Below are positions 45,791-58,300 of a DNA stretch of 64,000 nucleotides, piece by piece (positions within the stretch are counted from its first letter, which is position 1; each line of letters opens with the position of its first letter). Under the pieces are notes generated by a model. The model did not search any database and was not told the DNA's origin. It saw only the letters and a list, made by a program, of their open reading frames with translations. The translations under genes and the position numbers were made by a program. Source of the DNA: a virus; the UHGV virus genome UHGV-0125821. The stretch is one strand, 5' to 3'.

Positions 45791-45902
45791 ACATGAGTGT
45801 TAATAGATTTTATTTTACTAAACCTATTGACTAAATCACAAAGTAAGTATTGTTAGCCCGTCAAAAGAACCTTCACGCCGCGCCCGAATTTAGGGCTTAA
45901 CC

Positions 45903-47600
45903 GTGAATAAAAACATTCAGCCAGCTCGTGATCGCGAGCGCGAGATTATGAATCGGGCGGCAAGCGTCATGGCTATGACCGTCGATCCGACCACCGATGC
46001 AGCAGGCAACATGATTGCTGACCAGGCAGTAATGATGGAAAACCTGGATAAAGCAATCCAGAAAGTGCCTATGTTTGAAGGCGTAAATCCAGAGGTCGCT
46101 CGTCAGATCACTGGTGGGTGGGCTATGTCTCTGCATGAGTATAAACGTCAACATGGTCATTACCCGGCAAGTGACATCCTGGCGAACGCACACATGGCTC
46201 TTGAGCGCCTGATGACTGAATGTGCCAGTGATACCCATGAAGGCACGGGTAAGGCAATGTTTGAGTCTGTCGCGCAATCAATGCGTAGCTCTGACGGCGT
46301 AATGAAAGTTGCTCAATATGCTGCTCTAATTCTGCCTGCCTCTCTGGGCGCTGCTACCAGTGATGCCTGTACTTTTGTTCCTTGTGATCGTGACGAGTCA
46401 AATATTTATGAACTGGTCAACGTAGCAGGCACAAAATTCGGCACCTTCAACCAAGGTGACGAACTGAATATGCAGTCAGCTGGTGTTTATTCTCAAATGA
46501 AGCGCCTGTATGCCCTTTCCACTAAAGGGGATGGCAGCACCAAAACCTTCCAGTTCAACATCCAAAAATTTGAGGGACAATCCTGCCCGCTTCGCGCTGG
46601 TTATAACAAACTGCTGATCAACCGCAAACCGTCCAAAGTTGACGACGGCGATGGCAACCTTTATTTCAATGCTAAAGACAGCAAAGGTAATACTTTCTCA
46701 GCGACTGCCAAAGTTGCCTATGACACTGGTGTCATTGACATTACATTTACCCAGGCTCCGCCAGAAGGTACTGAAATTGCTGTTCAGGTCGAAATTAACA
46801 TCGAGCGCAATCCAAGCCTGATTCCGGTGATCAACCAGGCTATGCGTAAGTACGAAGTTCGTCCGTCCCAGTACGTACTTGCTTCCGAACACACGGTAAT
46901 GTCCGCATCCGATTTAAGCCGTGAGCACGGCCTTGAATTAGCGGCACTTCAGTTCTCCGCGATGCGTAACTGGATCTCCCATGAAACCGACATCATGCGT
47001 CTGCGCACCCTGGTATTCCATACCGTTTATGGTCGTGAATTTGATGTGGCTCTGCCGGAAGCTCAAAACTATGAGTCCTGGGTCGGCCTCCTGCGTCACG
47101 TAGTAAACGCTCTGTCTCAAGAAATGGCAAATCGTACCCTGACAACGGGTATTCGTGGCGGCTTTGCTGGTAGTGACGCCGCGAACTTCCTGCGCTCTCT
47201 GCCTCCACAGCACTTCCAGATCGCACCAGGTTACGTTCAGTCGCCGTATGTACAGTACATCGGCACCCTGTTTGGCACGATTCGTATTTACGAAGTGCCG
47301 CAACCTGTCTGTGAGCAATTCCAGGCACAGGGATATGACTTCGGGCTGGATGACATCTTCTTCTATGGGCGTGGCGAAGGCATTGGTAAAGCCGGTCTGA
47401 TTGCTGGTGATGCAGTCCCAGCAATCCCTTACGTTCACGAAACCAATCCGTCTCTCGTTAACCGTACCACTCTCTGGGGCAGTGCCATCAACGAAGTACA
47501 TCCTCGCAACGGTGAAAACTACTTCACCCGCCTGCGTCTGACTCGTGCCAAAGAAGGTGCTTTCGACATGCTGACAGGCAAGGTTAACGAAAAAAAGTGA
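45903..47600 (+). CDS. major capsid protein candidate
   Basis: 565 aa, GTG start; assignment by size, late-block context and Ig-like fragments downstream. Confidence 0.55.
   Translation: MNKNIQPARDREREIMNRAASVMAMTVDPTTDAAGNMIADQAVMMENLDKAIQKVPMFEGVNPEVARQITGGWAMSLHEYKRQHGHYPASDILANAHMALERLMTECASDTHEGTGKAMFESVAQSMRSSDGVMKVAQYAALILPASLGAATSDACTFVPCDRDESNIYELVNVAGTKFGTFNQGDELNMQSAGVYSQMKRLYALSTKGDGSTKTFQFNIQKFEGQSCPLRAGYNKLLINRKPSKVDDGDGNLYFNAKDSKGNTFSATAKVAYDTGVIDITFTQAPPEGTEIAVQVEINIERNPSLIPVINQAMRKYEVRPSQYVLASEHTVMSASDLSREHGLELAALQFSAMRNWISHETDIMRLRTLVFHTVYGREFDVALPEAQNYESWVGLLRHVVNALSQEMANRTLTTGIRGGFAGSDAANFLRSLPPQHFQIAPGYVQSPYVQYIGTLFGTIRIYEVPQPVCEQFQAQGYDFGLDDIFFYGRGEGIGKAGLIAGDAVPAIPYVHETNPSLVNRTTLWGSAINEVHPRNGENYFTRLRLTRAKEGAFDMLTGKVNEKK
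47591..47597 (+). other. A_AAA_AAG slippery heptamer at last codons of capsid-candidate gene
   Basis: codons GAA AAA AAG TGA; -1 frame continues 35 codons. Confidence 0.35.
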
Positions 47601-47746
47601 TGGTGGCGAACGTGTCGGTATCACCAACGTCACTTGACGTAGATGAAGGTGAAACTATCGCCGCGAACACTTCAAAGGCACAGAAAAAAACAAAGCAGAA
47701 GTAAGGCAAAAACACGCCCCTGATTAAGGGGCGTTCAGGAGAAAAA

Positions 47747-48025
47747 ATGGCAAACATTCAAGTAACTATCACGCCATCTGACGCAACAGACAAATCTTTC
47801 ACTGTTGAGTCAGATCACCCTGAAATTGTCCGGGTTGATGGCACTACATGTACCGCTCTTAAGGCCGGGCAGGCAGTGCTGACAATCAAAACAAATGACG
47901 GCAATAAAACCGCACAGTGCACAGTCACTGTTAGGGAGGCACATAAAAGCGTAAGCACCGTCAGTGTTGAACCAACTACGAAAGAAGTAACCGTAGGCGA
48001 TAACTTCACGGTAAGCGAATCCTGA
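47747..48025 (+). CDS. Ig-like (Big_2-type) domain protein
   Basis: TITPSDATDKSFTVESDHPEIVRVDGTTCTALKAGQAVLTIKTNDGNKTAQCTVTV; SD AGGAG. Confidence 0.6.
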   Translation: MANIQVTITPSDATDKSFTVESDHPEIVRVDGTTCTALKAGQAVLTIKTNDGNKTAQCTVTVREAHKSVSTVSVEPTTKEVTVGDNFTVSES

Positions 48026-48092
48026 TCAGAGGCTGCCCATTAACCGTGGGTAGCCTTGCCTCGTTCTCTCGCTTTAGAGGATAAGAACCAGC

Positions 48093-49751
48093 ATGAATAA
48101 GATTAGTTTTTCGGTAGGGCAGGCAGCTGGCGTTGCTGTAATGTCAGTAAATGCTGACGCTACCCTCACCAATACCAGCGGTGGCGCATCCGTCTTTGCT
48201 GGGCTTGTAATATCGCGTCGTGGCGCACCGGGTAAGGTACTGAAAGTTGACGATACGACTTATCAAAGCGTATTAGGTTCACCGATTCACCCTCGCCAGG
48301 GCGCGGCATTTGAACCATATCGCCACGTGGAGCGTGCAGTAAAAGGCGGCTCTGGATATGTCGTTCGAGTTTGCGCTAAAGACATGAAGGTGCCGGGTAT
48401 TTCTGTTTCCGTTGTGGGCAGAGCAAAAGCGGCAAAGGCGAGTAAAGAACTTTCCGTTGAACCAACTGAAACCACAGTAAATCCAGGTGTCACATTAAGC
48501 GTTGGTGTTGCTTCAACTGCAACGACTCAATCAGTGACCTTCACACCCAAAGAGACGCCCCAGATTAAAGGTGAAGAGAAGGCATTATTCTTCATCAAAG
48601 ATGGTGATGCATCTCAAAATCGCACGTTATCACTAACTCGCGATGATGAAGAAAGCGAACTCTTTACGCTGACGCTGAAAGAAAAACAAACCGATGGGTC
48701 CATTGAGGTGCTGGAAAGCCACCAAGTGTCTTTCAATCCAGAAGGCACCAACGACATGGGCCAACCAGCATGGATTCCGACACTGCTTGAAAGCCAGTCC
48801 ACTCGCATTGGTGCCGTACTGGCAGATAATGCAGAAGCATCCGCTGCTCAACTCATTTTTGAGGATGTAGCTTTTGAAGGTGGTACTGATGGAAATCTAT
48901 CCGAAATTAACGCTGCAGACTATCTGGAAGCATTAAAGGTTCTCGAAGCTTCAGAGGTTAATTACACCGCATTGCTGTCATTGGGTTGTTATGACGCATC
49001 CGCCTTAGCCGCAATCAAAAAGCTGGCTGAAGATGTTCGCGTAGACATGTTCTATGACCTGAAGGGCAACCAGACACCTGAAAACGCTATTTCAGAAGCG
49101 AAAAGCCATAGTTTTGGCGGCTCACATCAACCAAGCCGTTACTACTTCCCGCTCTCCTGCCGAGATACTTTCACTGGAATGAATGTCGTCTATGGCATTA
49201 GCTGCGACGCATTCGTAGCGAAGGCAAAAGGAGTGGCGCTGGTACCGGATGTTGGTGGTTGGCATTACGCACCGGCAGGTATATCACGCGCGATTATTGA
49301 TCGACAGAACATTGCCCGAATTCCAAATATCGGTGCAGTTGATCGTGAAGCGTTCGTTCTTGCGCGCATTAATCCAGTTTCAGTTGCTGCTGACGGGTCC
49401 GTTTACATTGACGACTCTTTAACAACTTACAGCAAAAACAACTATCTGCGATTCCAGCATGTGTCTTCCTTGATGAACGCCATCGCCAGAGATTTCTATG
49501 AAGTAGCTCAGGCGATTAAGCACGAACCGGATGGCATTACCAAAGAAACGCTAATGAAAGCAATGACTGAATTGCTTGACCGTTACGTTGCAGCCGGTGC
49601 GCTGGTTACTCCACGAGACAAGTCCCAGGGTGAAGATCCATATGTTGTTCAGGTTGTCCAAAAGGACATCGATCTGTGGGAAGTGTCCTGGTCTGTTTGT
49701 CCGACCGGCACAGCTCGCCGAATCGTCGGTAAGCCAATTCTGATGCGCTGA
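48093..49751 (+). CDS. tail sheath protein candidate
   Basis: 552 aa upstream of tube-like genes. Confidence 0.6.
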   Translation: MNKISFSVGQAAGVAVMSVNADATLTNTSGGASVFAGLVISRRGAPGKVLKVDDTTYQSVLGSPIHPRQGAAFEPYRHVERAVKGGSGYVVRVCAKDMKVPGISVSVVGRAKAAKASKELSVEPTETTVNPGVTLSVGVASTATTQSVTFTPKETPQIKGEEKALFFIKDGDASQNRTLSLTRDDEESELFTLTLKEKQTDGSIEVLESHQVSFNPEGTNDMGQPAWIPTLLESQSTRIGAVLADNAEASAAQLIFEDVAFEGGTDGNLSEINAADYLEALKVLEASEVNYTALLSLGCYDASALAAIKKLAEDVRVDMFYDLKGNQTPENAISEAKSHSFGGSHQPSRYYFPLSCRDTFTGMNVVYGISCDAFVAKAKGVALVPDVGGWHYAPAGISRAIIDRQNIARIPNIGAVDREAFVLARINPVSVAADGSVYIDDSLTTYSKNNYLRFQHVSSLMNAIARDFYEVAQAIKHEPDGITKETLMKAMTELLDRYVAAGALVTPRDKSQGEDPYVVQVVQKDIDLWEVSWSVCPTGTARRIVGKPILMR

Positions 49752-49794
49752 TTTATAACCCCCGCTAAATGATGCGGGGGAGAGAGGTTTGAAT

Positions 49795-50529
49795 ATGAAA
49801 AATTATACTGCTGATCCTTTTATGCGTGCGATTTTCGGTTCTGGCTGCTTTGAAAGCGGTGATAAATCCACGCAGGACAATAATGATAACGCCATGCTGG
49901 AAAGCGCAGGACAGAAAGGAAAGGACACTCAACCAAAGCCCAAAGGCGACATTGAAACCGCGATGATGGAAGCGGTTGAATCCCGTGCACAAGGTGATAT
50001 GCGCAGCCTGGCAGCTTCCATGCTTGCTGGTTGGGTTGAAGATGGTGATCCGGAGGCTGACTCATTTGATGCATTAGCAATCACTATGGCTGGCCTGGCT
50101 GATATCGATGAAGACACCGATTTCACCGATGAGCAAATCGATGCTTATAACGATGCTCTCGCAGCTCTTGCTGATGCAGCTGTTGCGCTTGGCGCTGATC
50201 AGGACGATGTAACCGAAATGATCGACGATGAAGATGACTCAGCTGCCGAACGTGTTTATGACGCTCTTTCCGAAAGCGACACCGACATGATGGAAACAGC
50301 TATTGCCATTTACACCGTTGCTGGTGGTGATAGCGCAATGCTGGAAGCGGTACGTAAAAAAGTGGTTCGTGATGGCAAGGTTACCATCATCCGTAAACGC
50401 CCGCGTCCTCGCCGCATGACGTCATTGCAAAAACAGGCGCTGAAAAAAGCACGCCGCAAAGCACATACATCCGTAGCGAATATCAACCGCAAAAAATCAA
50501 TGCGCATTCGCAAAAAACGCGGTTTGTAA
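49795..50529 (+). CDS. highly acidic protein with strongly basic C-terminal tail
   Basis: Asp/Glu-rich body, C-terminus RKRPRPRRMTSLQKQALKKARRK...; start set at ATG with SD GAGAGG. Confidence 0.6.
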   Translation: MKNYTADPFMRAIFGSGCFESGDKSTQDNNDNAMLESAGQKGKDTQPKPKGDIETAMMEAVESRAQGDMRSLAASMLAGWVEDGDPEADSFDALAITMAGLADIDEDTDFTDEQIDAYNDALAALADAAVALGADQDDVTEMIDDEDDSAAERVYDALSESDTDMMETAIAIYTVAGGDSAMLEAVRKKVVRDGKVTIIRKRPRPRRMTSLQKQALKKARRKAHTSVANINRKKSMRIRKKRGL

Positions 50530-55359: not shown

Positions 55360-58300
55360 ATGGATATCAGCCCGTTAGTGACGTTGAACAATTGCCACAA
55401 TGGCGAGCACTCCATATGTCAAAAGCCCTGGAAGAAAAATACAAAGCTCAAGCCGGGAAACGTTGTCGCCGCTGGTAAAAGAGAGGTTATTTTGAAAGAG
55501 AATAAAGACCGTATCGCAATAATTGACGCTATTCAGGGGGCGAGCACAAACGAACTTAAGGCTCTTGCTGAGATCAAAGATGCCATTCTTTCTGGGGCAA
55601 GCACCATAACTCAACAGGCCGAAAGGCAAGGCAGAGTTAGCAACAGACTATCACGCAGGCGTAAAGAGTACGAGCAAAGTACATCTGATAGCGTTAGAGA
55701 TGTCCAAACTAACCCATATAAAAAACGTCTCCCTGCTAAAAAGGAAAGGGCACCGTTAAACCAAACCGTGGACCGCTCTATCGTTGCAACGAACACACCA
55801 GAAAGTGTTCGCTCCGTGCAATCACGTCAGACCATCCGAAAATCGGACGGTTTTATACCGGTAGCTGCTAATTCAGCCCCTCTTGAACCACAATCCCCCC
55901 AAAGTCTAAAAGGCCCGCTGCGGGATAGTAATGGACGTTTTGTATCCCAAAAAAGCAATGAGGATGTAGCCAGAAAAAAAGAATTGCAGAACGCACGTAA
56001 AGCCGACGCAAAATTACAAGCTGGCTTTCTCAGAAAGCTAGGTTCCATTATGGGGGTAGATGGCAATCGGTCTTCCAGTGAAGAGTCTTTAACAAATGCA
56101 GCTGGTGTCGGTGCTGGTGGGCCGTTCTGGATGGCGGCTCGTGGCATGTACGACATAACTAAAGAGATCACAGGTAAAGCAGAATCTCTTAAAGAATGGG
56201 TAGAAAAGGGGAAAAAAGAAACATCAACCTCGAAAGCAATATCACCAGTAATTACTTATCCGGCGGCGGTGAATTCTCAAAAAGCAACATCTGCAAAAGC
56301 GTTCAATAACGCTGTTGAGACAAAATCCGCACAAGCAGTAGAAGAGCAAACCAAAATCCTTCAGACCAATGACAACAAAATAATTGATGGTCTGGAAAAT
56401 GTTTCTGACGAGATAGTTAAGCTTCGGAAATCAGTGTCTTCTGGAAATAAGTTCGGCTTAAGTGATCTCTGGAAAAATCGAGCAAGCAGAAGAAATAAAA
56501 TCAATATTGGTGATCAGACGGGAAAAAATAAACGGAACAAATCGAAAAGGAAAGGACGCAATCTTGGGAAAAAAGCACTCTCCGCTGGCGAAAAAGTTGC
56601 TGCCGGTAGCGCTGCGGCTGGCACTGGTGTCGGAGCAGCAAAAGTAGTTAAAAATAAGATCAGCAAACCCAAAGATGTAAGCACTATCAGCGATACATCA
56701 AAGGGGATTGCAAAGGAAACAAAAAATACTGCTAAGGCCGTGAAGTCAGCTGGTGTTGTGGCTGAAGATGCCACCATTAAAACCGGCGAAGCCATTGCAA
56801 AGAAAAAAACTGAATCTGTAGCCCTCAAAAGTGCTGCAAAAATAGGTGTTAAATCAGCAGCATCCACAGCGGCAAGAGCGGTCCCTATCATCGGTTCGCT
56901 GGCAATGGCTGGATATGACGCCATAGATGGTTACACAGATACAGAGGCGCAAAAGGCAGCCTTTGGCTTAAGTGATGATAATGCTGTATCCACACAGCAA
57001 AAAACCGCTTATGCAGCAGCTAATGTGCTTGATATGGGCGGCTTAGTGTCGGGTGCAACCAACCTAATAGGCAAAGGGATTTCTGCGTTAGGCTTTGAAG
57101 GGGCAGGTGAAAAACTTCAGAATTTTAACACTGGAGATATTGCTCGTGACATAAATAGTTCTATAGACACGACAAAAACCGTATTCAGCAGCCTAAAAGA
57201 ATCGTTCTCATCAAGCAGCGAAGGCACTGCGCAGGTTAAGAAAGCCGTTGAAGATGGCACCAAGCAAACGGTAACCGCAATTAATAACCTGGGCCGACAG
57301 CTACAAGGCGGGCGTGATGGTGAAGATGGTGTTGGTGAGCACGGGTATACTTCCCCGGCTGAATTTAATGCGCCTACCAGTAACACCATTGCTGCGGATC
57401 TGAATATTGGTGGCAGCAACGCTAAAAACCGCAATTATCGGAATAATAATCTCGGGAACCTTGTTTTCGCCAATCAGGAAGGGGCGACGCTGGAAGCACC
57501 GAATGCAAAAGGTGAACAGCGTTTTGCTCGATTCAACACGCCTGAAGAAGGGATCAGGGCGTTGGCAAACCAAGTGTCAAGCTATTACAACGGCACCAGT
57601 GCCGCAGCAGGACATCAGAAGTTACAGACGGTATCAAGCATCATTTCCAAATGGGCGCCGCCAAATGAGAACAATACCAATCAATATATTGATAACGTCA
57701 GTAAATATCTTGGCGTCTCGCCTAATGAAAAAATAGACGTCAGCAACCCAGAGGTTATGACGCAATTAGTTCGTGCAATAGCGACGAAAGAAGGTGGAAA
57801 CCCGGCGGTTAACAATGAGTTCATAAAGAATGCTCTTGGGGCATTCAACGCAAATACTGGTCGTTGGGAAGGGCGGTTCTCCGATGAAACATTGGCGCGG
57901 CTTAATAAAATTCAGCAAGAGAATGGCGGTCAACTAATTGCTCGTGATTCGCAATATAGCGTTGGTCGCAAGGTGAAATATGCTGATGGTACATCTCCAG
58001 CACAACCTGTATTGAATGCAGTTCCAACAGCAACACCTAAGCCAATTGAAGTTGCACAACATGCCCAGGCCGCCAAAAAGCCACAAAAAAAAGGTAACCA
58101 ACCACAACCGATTAATCCAGAGAACGCTGATGTTAATACCGGCTCTCCATCGAGTTTGCTTGAGCGGTTAATCGCAATAAATGAAAGCGGAATCAGTGGT
58201 GCAAGTAATTTATTTGGCGGCGCGGCTACCAGCCTTGCTGGAACAAGTCTGGACCTGGTAAAGGATTTTGCGTCGGCTACTTCGTTTGGTTCTATATCTT

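Follow-up and report, generated by a model that had tools for sequence, protein, structure and literature searches.

Predicted −1 frameshifting at the end of the major capsid gene and a divided Big_2 domain in D6-type plasmid prophages

The capsid–sheath locus

We analyzed a 64,000-nucleotide stretch of the virus genome UHGV-0125821, referred to below as the window, and focused on the 3′ end of its major capsid protein gene and on the small gene that follows it. The window is a D6-type, P1-like plasmid prophage, and its positions 45800–49800 are 99.1% identical to Escherichia phage D6. The D6/P1 gene order is kept: the major capsid protein gene is followed by two small open reading frames (ORFs), then by the tail sheath gene (a gene 22 homologue) and by baseplate and tube genes. 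The features described here lie on the + strand.

The major capsid protein gene (45903–47600, 565 aa) is a homologue of P1 gene 23 and corresponds to D6 orf51, with which it shares 99% DNA identity and which is annotated as the major capsid protein. A sequence-only reading of the window had named this ORF as a capsid candidate. This proves correct, since the 565-aa product is a homologue of P1 Gp23 and matched it in PDB 9ukm with E = 1.3e-163 (phmmer). The host gene of the predicted frameshift is a major virion structural gene. In P1, gp23 forms a T=13 shell with 775 copies (PMC12810830), and P1 itself has no decoration protein (PMC9024508).

The capsid ORF ends with GAA AAA AAG TGA, in which the slippery heptamer A_AAA_AAG occupies positions 47591–47597 and the 0-frame stop TGA follows directly at 47598–47600. 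The heptamer stands in the canonical X_XXY_YYZ register of ORF 45903–47600. In the −1 frame, the sequence stays open for 35 codons past the heptamer (47597–47704) and closes with a TAA stop at 47702–47704; its translation is VMVANVSVSPTSLDVDEGETIAANTSKAQKKTKQK. Both the heptamer at the end of the capsid gene and the open −1 frame had been pointed out in the sequence-only reading, and direct reading of the sequence agrees with it. The 35-codon extension, which is D6 orf50, consists of an “A piece” (positions 2–21 of the Big_2 immunoglobulin (Ig)-like domain) followed by a Lys-rich tail. The predicted trans-frame junction reads ...VNEKK followed by VMVAN..., and VMVANVSVSPTSLDVDEGETIAANTSK is a tryptic peptide of the predicted extension.

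The second small ORF (47747–48025, D6 orf49) encodes a protein of 92 aa that we call P92. Residues 1–64 form a “B piece”, that is, Big_2 without its first ~21 residues, and residues 66–92 (47942–48022) form a second A piece. A Shine-Dalgarno sequence, AGGAG, is located at 47737–47741; its GGAG lies 5 nt before the ATG (7–8 nt in relatives), and it is conserved in the D6 clade. The sheath gene follows at 48093–49751, and its product is 36% identical to P1 gp22.

Conservation of the heptamer and the predicted frameshift

The heptamer was kept in all of the D6-clade loci (31/31). In an alignment with D6 and six plasmids of 75–82% identity, GAAAAAAAG was invariant; in the same alignment the capsid stop was TGA or TAG, and the −1 ORF always had 35 codons followed by TAA. 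We also found A_AAA_AAG in the same register in five distant lineages, namely L009/L037, L071, L075, L077/L082 and L081, which lack DNA similarity in this region (L009 is Enterobacter hormaechei p60214CZ_1, L071 and L075 are Logan contigs, L082 is Klebsiella variicola and L081 is a JGI contig). In the D6 clade and in these lineages the site forms the last two codons of the capsid gene or lies two codons before the stop. The capsid tails that end there are unrelated (NEKK, EEEKKSE, GDEKK, EAKKSE, ETEKKSK and TGKKSE, each followed by the stop). The codon before AAA AAG is GAA, GCA or GGA, with a third base that is always A, and neither Lys codon is ever replaced by its synonym. The A run is only six bases long in L075 and L081 (GCA AAA AAG and GGA AAA AAG), and their X_XXY_YYZ register is exact. 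The heptamer and the −1 ORF are conserved beyond what coding alone requires, and the conservation in relatives on which the sequence-only reading depended is found independently of the flanking codons.

The −1 ORF of the distant frameshift lineages encodes a homologous peptide of 24–45 codons with the motif V.V(T/A)G(V/I)SVS...G(D/E). The Lys-rich tail is present in many lineages and missing in L009 and L071; the conserved portion is the strand motif. A continuous capsid ORF, which the sequence-only reading had envisaged among relatives, was found in four lineages (five loci: L035/L036, L073, L076 and L078). These carry the homologous segment in frame, with no heptamer and no stop, and one such capsid ORF ends with ...LTGQVNGTSGTVVEGVTLSPASITVSAGDEITAGNTKKDS and its stop. 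Because four lineages fuse the homologous segment in frame, the sequence comparison indicates that the extension truly forms a C-terminal addition to the capsid protein. The P92-less relatives (P1, the Acinetobacter plasmid L010, the Citrobacter contig L079 and the Leclercia plasmid L080) have neither the heptamer nor the extension.

From this pattern, −1 programmed frameshifting at the end of the capsid gene appears very likely. Some of the ribosomes that translate the capsid gene would move back by one base while on A_AAA_AAG, in the two final codons, and would then bypass the TGA and add 35 residues. A candidate stimulator is a predicted stem-loop at 47603–47664, which begins 6 nt 3′ of the heptamer and in which GUGGCGA (47603–47609) pairs with UCGCCGC (47658–47664), with inner stems in addition. 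The RNAalifold consensus contained one to two covarying pairs, at synonymous sites, and single-sequence z-scores were −2.1 and −2.8. Each of the other frameshift lineages has a different predicted hairpin 5–10 nt downstream (z from −1.2 to −2.6). In addition, synonymous divergence (pS) in the extension was half of that in the last 99 capsid codons (0.215 vs. 0.441), which fits an added constraint at the nucleotide level. The stem-loop is a plausible frameshift stimulator with moderate support. An upstream Shine-Dalgarno-like stimulator was not conserved in the alignment with D6 and the six plasmids.

The same protein could be made by transcriptional slippage. If RNA polymerase added one A in the A7 run, a subpopulation of the mRNA would carry the extension in frame, and the sequence predicts a product identical to that of a −1 ribosomal shift. 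The run consists of seven A’s in the window and in most relatives, and such slippage is in use by some bacterial and insertion sequence (IS) genes (PMC5009743). However, slippage of RNA polymerase does not depend on codon register, and the register would then not be conserved. Runs of six to seven A’s are short for efficient slippage by the E. coli RNA polymerase, which also counts against this explanation, as does the predicted hairpin found at frameshift-stimulator spacing in each lineage. Because L075 and L081, with only six A’s, keep the exact codon register, the sequences favour a ribosomal mechanism, and we regard transcriptional slippage as improbable.

Another alternative is that there is no recoding at all. 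The 35-codon ORF would then be a separate small gene starting from an ATG or GTG that overlaps the capsid stop, or would not be expressed, and the heptamer would merely encode Lys-Lys. GTG and ATG codons do lie right at the capsid stop in the window. In relatives, however, the sequence there reads GTA GCA..., GTC GGA... or GTC CGA..., with no nearby start codon or Shine-Dalgarno sequence, and independent initiation of orf50 was rejected because neither element is conserved. This account also leaves the invariant AAA AAG codons and the in-frame fusions to the capsid gene unexplained, and the heptamer, the extension and P92 vanish together in L079, L080, L010 and P1. We therefore consider it very improbable.

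Several points nevertheless weigh against programmed frameshifting. D6 orf50 is annotated as a separate coding sequence (CDS), which speaks for an independent gene; this annotation is probably wrong, since a start codon and a Shine-Dalgarno sequence for separate translation are not conserved. The heptamer by itself is not special, because it is common in the window, and its frequency also fits the absence of recoding. AAAAAAG occurs 31 times in the 64 kb against 19.7 expected, and 31 or more copies were obtained in 0 of 100 shuffles. Its significance comes from its position and conservation, not from occurrence alone. The ratio of nonsynonymous to synonymous divergence (pN/pS) of the extension in the D6 clade was 0.53 in the −1 frame versus 1.35 and 1.08 in the other two frames; that only the −1 frame lies below 1 speaks for the frameshift, but over 35 codons this is weak evidence when taken alone. 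As for the RNA, the evidence for a stimulator is modest: most of the stem is invariant and gives little information either way, and one relative had a z-score of +0.2.

Other copies of AAAAAAG include two in the gene 21 homologue (50356 and 50443) and a cluster at 55949–56575. We also considered a second slip site within the extension, CAG AAA AAA ACA (47683–47689), and rejected it: its +1 and −1 readings both end within ~10 codons, and the run is not kept in relatives. In L026 (IMGVR_UViG_2531839449_000024), the length of the A7 run equivalent to 47683–47689 is changed and the last residues of the extension are altered (…KAQKKQSRSK…). The difference may be real, or it may come from a sequencing error in the homopolymer.

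A survey of phage Ig-like domains (Fraser et al.), cited in PMC5009743, reportedly includes C-terminal Ig-like domains that are reached by frameshift. T3, A2 and Listeria phages are well-documented cases in which frameshifting lengthens the capsid protein, or in which an Ig-like domain is attached by frameshift in some relatives and in frame in others (PMC5009743); the sequence-only reading had noted that such extensions are known in other phages. As in T3/T7 gene 10A/10B, Lactobacillus phage A2 gp5A/5B and the Listeria phages A118, A500 and PSA, the slip site lies here at the 3′ end of a major structural gene. The members of this class share two capsid species from one gene, an Ig-like addition, and relatives that switch between in-frame and frameshifted forms; the same features are predicted here from sequence. 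The difference is that only ~20 Ig residues (Big_2 positions 2–21) are added here, too few to fold, and the rest of the domain is the product of a separate gene.

The site can also be compared with the E. coli dnaX cassette. Both have A_AAA_AAG and a host translation apparatus with a single tRNA-Lys, and at the capsid site, too, a stem-loop is predicted a few nucleotides downstream. Unlike dnaX, the capsid site has no conserved upstream Shine-Dalgarno-like stimulator, the 0-frame stop comes directly or two codons after the heptamer, and the shift lengthens the product, whereas it truncates the product in dnaX. No other heptamer is as prone to shifting in E. coli as A_AAA_AAG, and the genes that E. 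coli expresses most strongly do not contain it (PMC5009743), so that its constancy at the 3′ end of a capsid gene is notable.

A Big_2 domain divided between two proteins

P92 matched the Pfam family Big_2 (PF02368) with 34.1 bits (gathering cut-off 22.8) over positions 22–79 of 79 only. The 35-aa extension alone had no Pfam match, in keeping with an incomplete Ig-like domain limited to positions 2–21. When the extension and the P92 core were joined in silico, we obtained a full match to positions 2–79 of 79, and the score rose to 42.8 bits from 35.8 bits for the core alone; the join also holds for L009, L035 and L071. This composite test upholds the view, taken in the sequence-only reading, that the extension resembles the first strands of Big_2. 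In complete Big_2 domains of unrelated phages, the segment that aligns with P92 is immediately preceded by a motif resembling the extension (vtgvtvtptsasvaagasttf), and this alignment places the cut midway through strand B. The sequence-only reading had also described the 47747–48025 ORF as a complete Big_2-like core plus the beginning of another domain. Its length of 92 aa and the start of a second domain stand, whereas the core is not complete.

The extension and P92 are in the same frame in the window, as had been noted, but this is coincidental. From the extension stop to the P92 ATG there are 42 nt in the window, 43 nt in D6 and 39, 38 or 37 nt in relatives, and because this length varies P92 must be translated independently of the extension. 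Read-through or a ribosome hop joining the two was ruled out by these spacer lengths and by the conserved AGGAG-ATG that P92 has of its own. The suspected division of the domain across stops is real, and it is conserved across all lineages examined.

The second A piece, at the C-terminus of P92, is VSTVSVEPTTKEVTVGDNFTVSES. It ends at the same point of the domain as the capsid extension, and it is conserved with an alternating hydrophobic pattern. By profile search, we found that P92 belongs to a family of proteins of 91–96 aa with 34–55% identity, located between the capsid and sheath genes wherever the context is available. P92 and all 18 family members lack profile positions 1–21, and the cut point is identical across lineages at only ~35–45% P92 identity. 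Because the whole family shares the layout of a core followed by a first piece, the sequences indicate that the split is an ancient, maintained and selected architecture rather than decay. A P92 sequence with 98% identity occurs in L012 (CALWLV010000256.1), an 11-kb contig of a metagenome-assembled genome named “uncultured Roseburia sp.” that contains D6-clade sequence; it is most likely a mis-binned contig of an Enterobacteriaceae phage-plasmid.

An AlphaFold2 (AF2) model of P92, based on an alignment of 19 sequences, had a predicted local distance difference test (pLDDT) score of 89.6. Strands were predicted only at residues 18–62, with none at 1–17 or 63–92. Foldseek matched the model to solved Big_2 domains, including the C-terminal domain of the lambda tail-tube protein gpV, over ~60 residues. 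Only ~6 residues connect strand G, the last of the core, to the C-terminal piece, with 4 fewer in P0012. From the geometry of the Ig fold, such a linker would be too short for the C-terminal piece to take the place of the native A strand in the core that it follows. P92 as a self-completing circular permutant was rejected for this reason and because the model shows no pairing.

No further Big_2 core pieces were found within the window. In L071 (Logan contig from SRR11077323), an additional ORF of 68 aa at 2238–2444 lies between the extension and the P92 homologue and encodes a truncated Big_2 core with no C-terminal piece of the A type. L071 thus has a frameshifted capsid A piece, P91 (a core and an A piece) and a core-only ORF, which makes two A pieces and two cores, a balance that suits the docking proposed below. 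Judged from its sequence, the 68-aa product could be a subunit that caps a chain.

Two hairpins flank the P92 gene. The first, GC-rich, is ACGCCCCT-GATTA-AGGGGCGT at 47714–47734, 3′ of the extension stop, and has no U-tract on the + strand. Every lineage has it at this position, and the D6 clade shows a compensatory change; P1 and Acinetobacter L010 also carry it after the capsid gene. In the window and D6 only, it is preceded on the + strand by GGCAAAAAC (47703–47734 together); a 6-nt deletion removes this run in relatives. Read on the minus strand, 47703–47734 is a canonical terminator-like site with a stem and then a T-run, and it has this form in that orientation only. The second hairpin, AGGCTGCCCA-TTAACCG-TGGGTAGCCT at 48030–48056, lies between P92 and the sheath gene, and its position is kept with compensatory changes in D6-clade relatives.

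Possible docking of P92 on the virion

We propose that the two parts of the domain may meet on the virion. The tail added to the capsid protein would supply strands A and A′ and the beginning of strand B, which make up the first third of the Big_2 Ig-like domain, as well as a Lys-rich end, and P92, translated from its own ribosome-binding site, would supply the remaining two thirds together with a second first-third piece. The capsid tail would insert into the open edge of P92, complete the Ig fold in trans and thereby tether P92 to the head. The spare C-terminal piece of P92 could accept another P92 or stay free. Frameshifting would set the number of capsid subunits that bear the added piece as a docking tag, and relatives with the in-frame form would tag every subunit.

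The sheath may carry a second docking tag, in a loop with a similar motif. The A-piece-like motif KELSVEPTETTVNPGVTLSVGVAS (48444–48515, sheath residues 118–141) lies inside an insertion of ~34 aa relative to P1 gp22 (48417–48518, residues ~109–142). We scanned the sheath proteins with a hidden Markov model (HMM) that was built only from capsid extensions and P92 C-termini. It matched the aligned sheath position in P92-bearing lineages, with 19.6, 17.0, 12.6 and 12.2 bits in four of them and 5–8 bits in others; no HMM match was found in the L076 sheath. The insertion is missing in the P1, Acinetobacter, Citrobacter and Leclercia sheaths, all from genomes without P92. At least 10 lineages have the extension, P92 and the sheath insertion together, and P1, L010, L079 and L080 have none of the three. 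In the AF2 model of the sheath (pLDDT 83.4, predicted template modelling score 0.80), residues 108–142 are the sole internal stretch with no secondary structure and the sole one of low confidence (pLDDT 43–67). Sequence comparison gives three candidates for a donor segment: the extension of the capsid protein, the C-terminus of P92 and, with weak support, the insertion in the sheath protein.

Some results count against docking. The sheath motif of the window itself scored 7.6 bits, which is not significant alone, and the low pLDDT of the insertion could reflect a thin alignment there. Residues 63–92 of the P92 model have high local confidence (85–94) with no strand pairing, and the C-terminal piece may be self-capping in a non-native orientation. 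In addition, tags always outnumber cores in D6-type genomes, a stoichiometry for which the proposed docking does not account.

A different explanation accepts the frameshift and takes the split as an evolutionary relic, in which an ancestral capsid–Big_2 fusion was broken by the insertion of a hairpin and a ribosome-binding site. The 35-aa tail would then act alone, for example as a charged surface tail, and P92 would be an independent Ig-like decoration or accessory protein that uses other surfaces with no strand complementation. Movement of Ig-like modules from one phage structural gene to another, whether or not they land in frame, is known (PMC5009743), and the known decoration proteins of the Ig-like type attach to capsids with no exchange of strands (PMC7602432). 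The Lys-rich tail occurs in many lineages, and the P92 monomer is predicted with high confidence with no partner, which also suits this explanation. However, a relic is hard to reconcile with a cut point that stays identical while P92 identity falls to ~35–45%. What is conserved in the tail is the strand motif and not the Lys-rich end, which L009 and L071 do not have. There is no further domain in P92 able to bind the capsid, and the N-terminal 17 residues of this protein are free of strands in the model. A relic also leaves the first-strand copy at the P92 C-terminus, the core-only ORF of L071 and the co-occurring sheath insertion unaccounted for. We consider it rather unlikely.

As for the docking of P92 on the tags by completion of a Big_2 domain in trans, the sequence features leave the case about evenly balanced. 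Taken as a whole, the explanation that combines frameshifting with split-domain docking is one we lean towards slightly. An extended form may be suggested only tentatively, and we find it somewhat doubtful. This would be a natural split-Ig “tag and catcher”, in which tags on the capsid, dosed by frameshifting, and on the sheath loop would recruit P92, P92 would string head to tail on both head and tail in a non-covalent manner, and a core-only protein would act as a cap in some lineages.

The closest parallel is found in chaperone-usher and type V pili (FimA/Mfa1), where one edge strand is missing from an Ig-like subunit and is provided by another polypeptide. In type V pili, as in the present case, the N-terminal part is missing and the donor is C-terminal (PMC13655056). 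The core-only ORF of L071 resembles the subunit that ends a pilus chain. At the sequence level, two elements of donor-strand complementation were found here, that is, an acceptor with an incomplete Ig-like fold and a matching donor on a separate polypeptide. The differences are that no chaperone, usher or protease was identified, that the exchanged piece has ~21 residues and includes half of strand B instead of being a single strand, and that the donors are on the capsid protein and possibly on the sheath protein, in an interaction which we infer.

SpyTag/SpyCatcher is an engineered split of the bacterial Ig-like domain CnaB2, in which a short peptide fused to one protein completes the truncated domain carried by another. 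SpyTag supplies the last strand and is locked by an isopeptide bond, whereas a covalent bond is not suggested here. T4 Hoc, T5 pb10 and N4 gp17 are likewise small Ig-like accessory proteins that are encoded among head or tail genes, and like P92 they are probably on the virion surface. They have complete Ig domains and a dedicated capsid-binding domain (PMC7602432), whereas P92 has neither and consists of one truncated Big_2 domain and a 27-aa strand segment. In the decoration-protein and recoding literature that we searched, we found no description of split-Ig anchoring on a phage, or of an Ig domain divided between a frameshifted tail and a small protein. The predicted frameshift, which is unannotated in D6, adds a new member to a known class, and anchoring through a split domain would be new.

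E. coli, Salmonella and Shigella commonly carry D6-like plasmid prophages. A 601-bp query matched 125 plasmid records, ~120 of them D6-like. Their capsid gene is annotated without recoding, so that the predicted frameshift would change the annotation across the group. If the docking is true, it would represent a new way of anchoring decoration proteins, in which the efficiency of frameshifting would set the occupancy of the capsid decoration. It would also provide a compact natural pair of peptide tag and catcher for phage display, and it would be a virus-encoded analogue of the donor-strand exchange of pili. D6 is a cultured phage, and the hypothesis is directly testable there.

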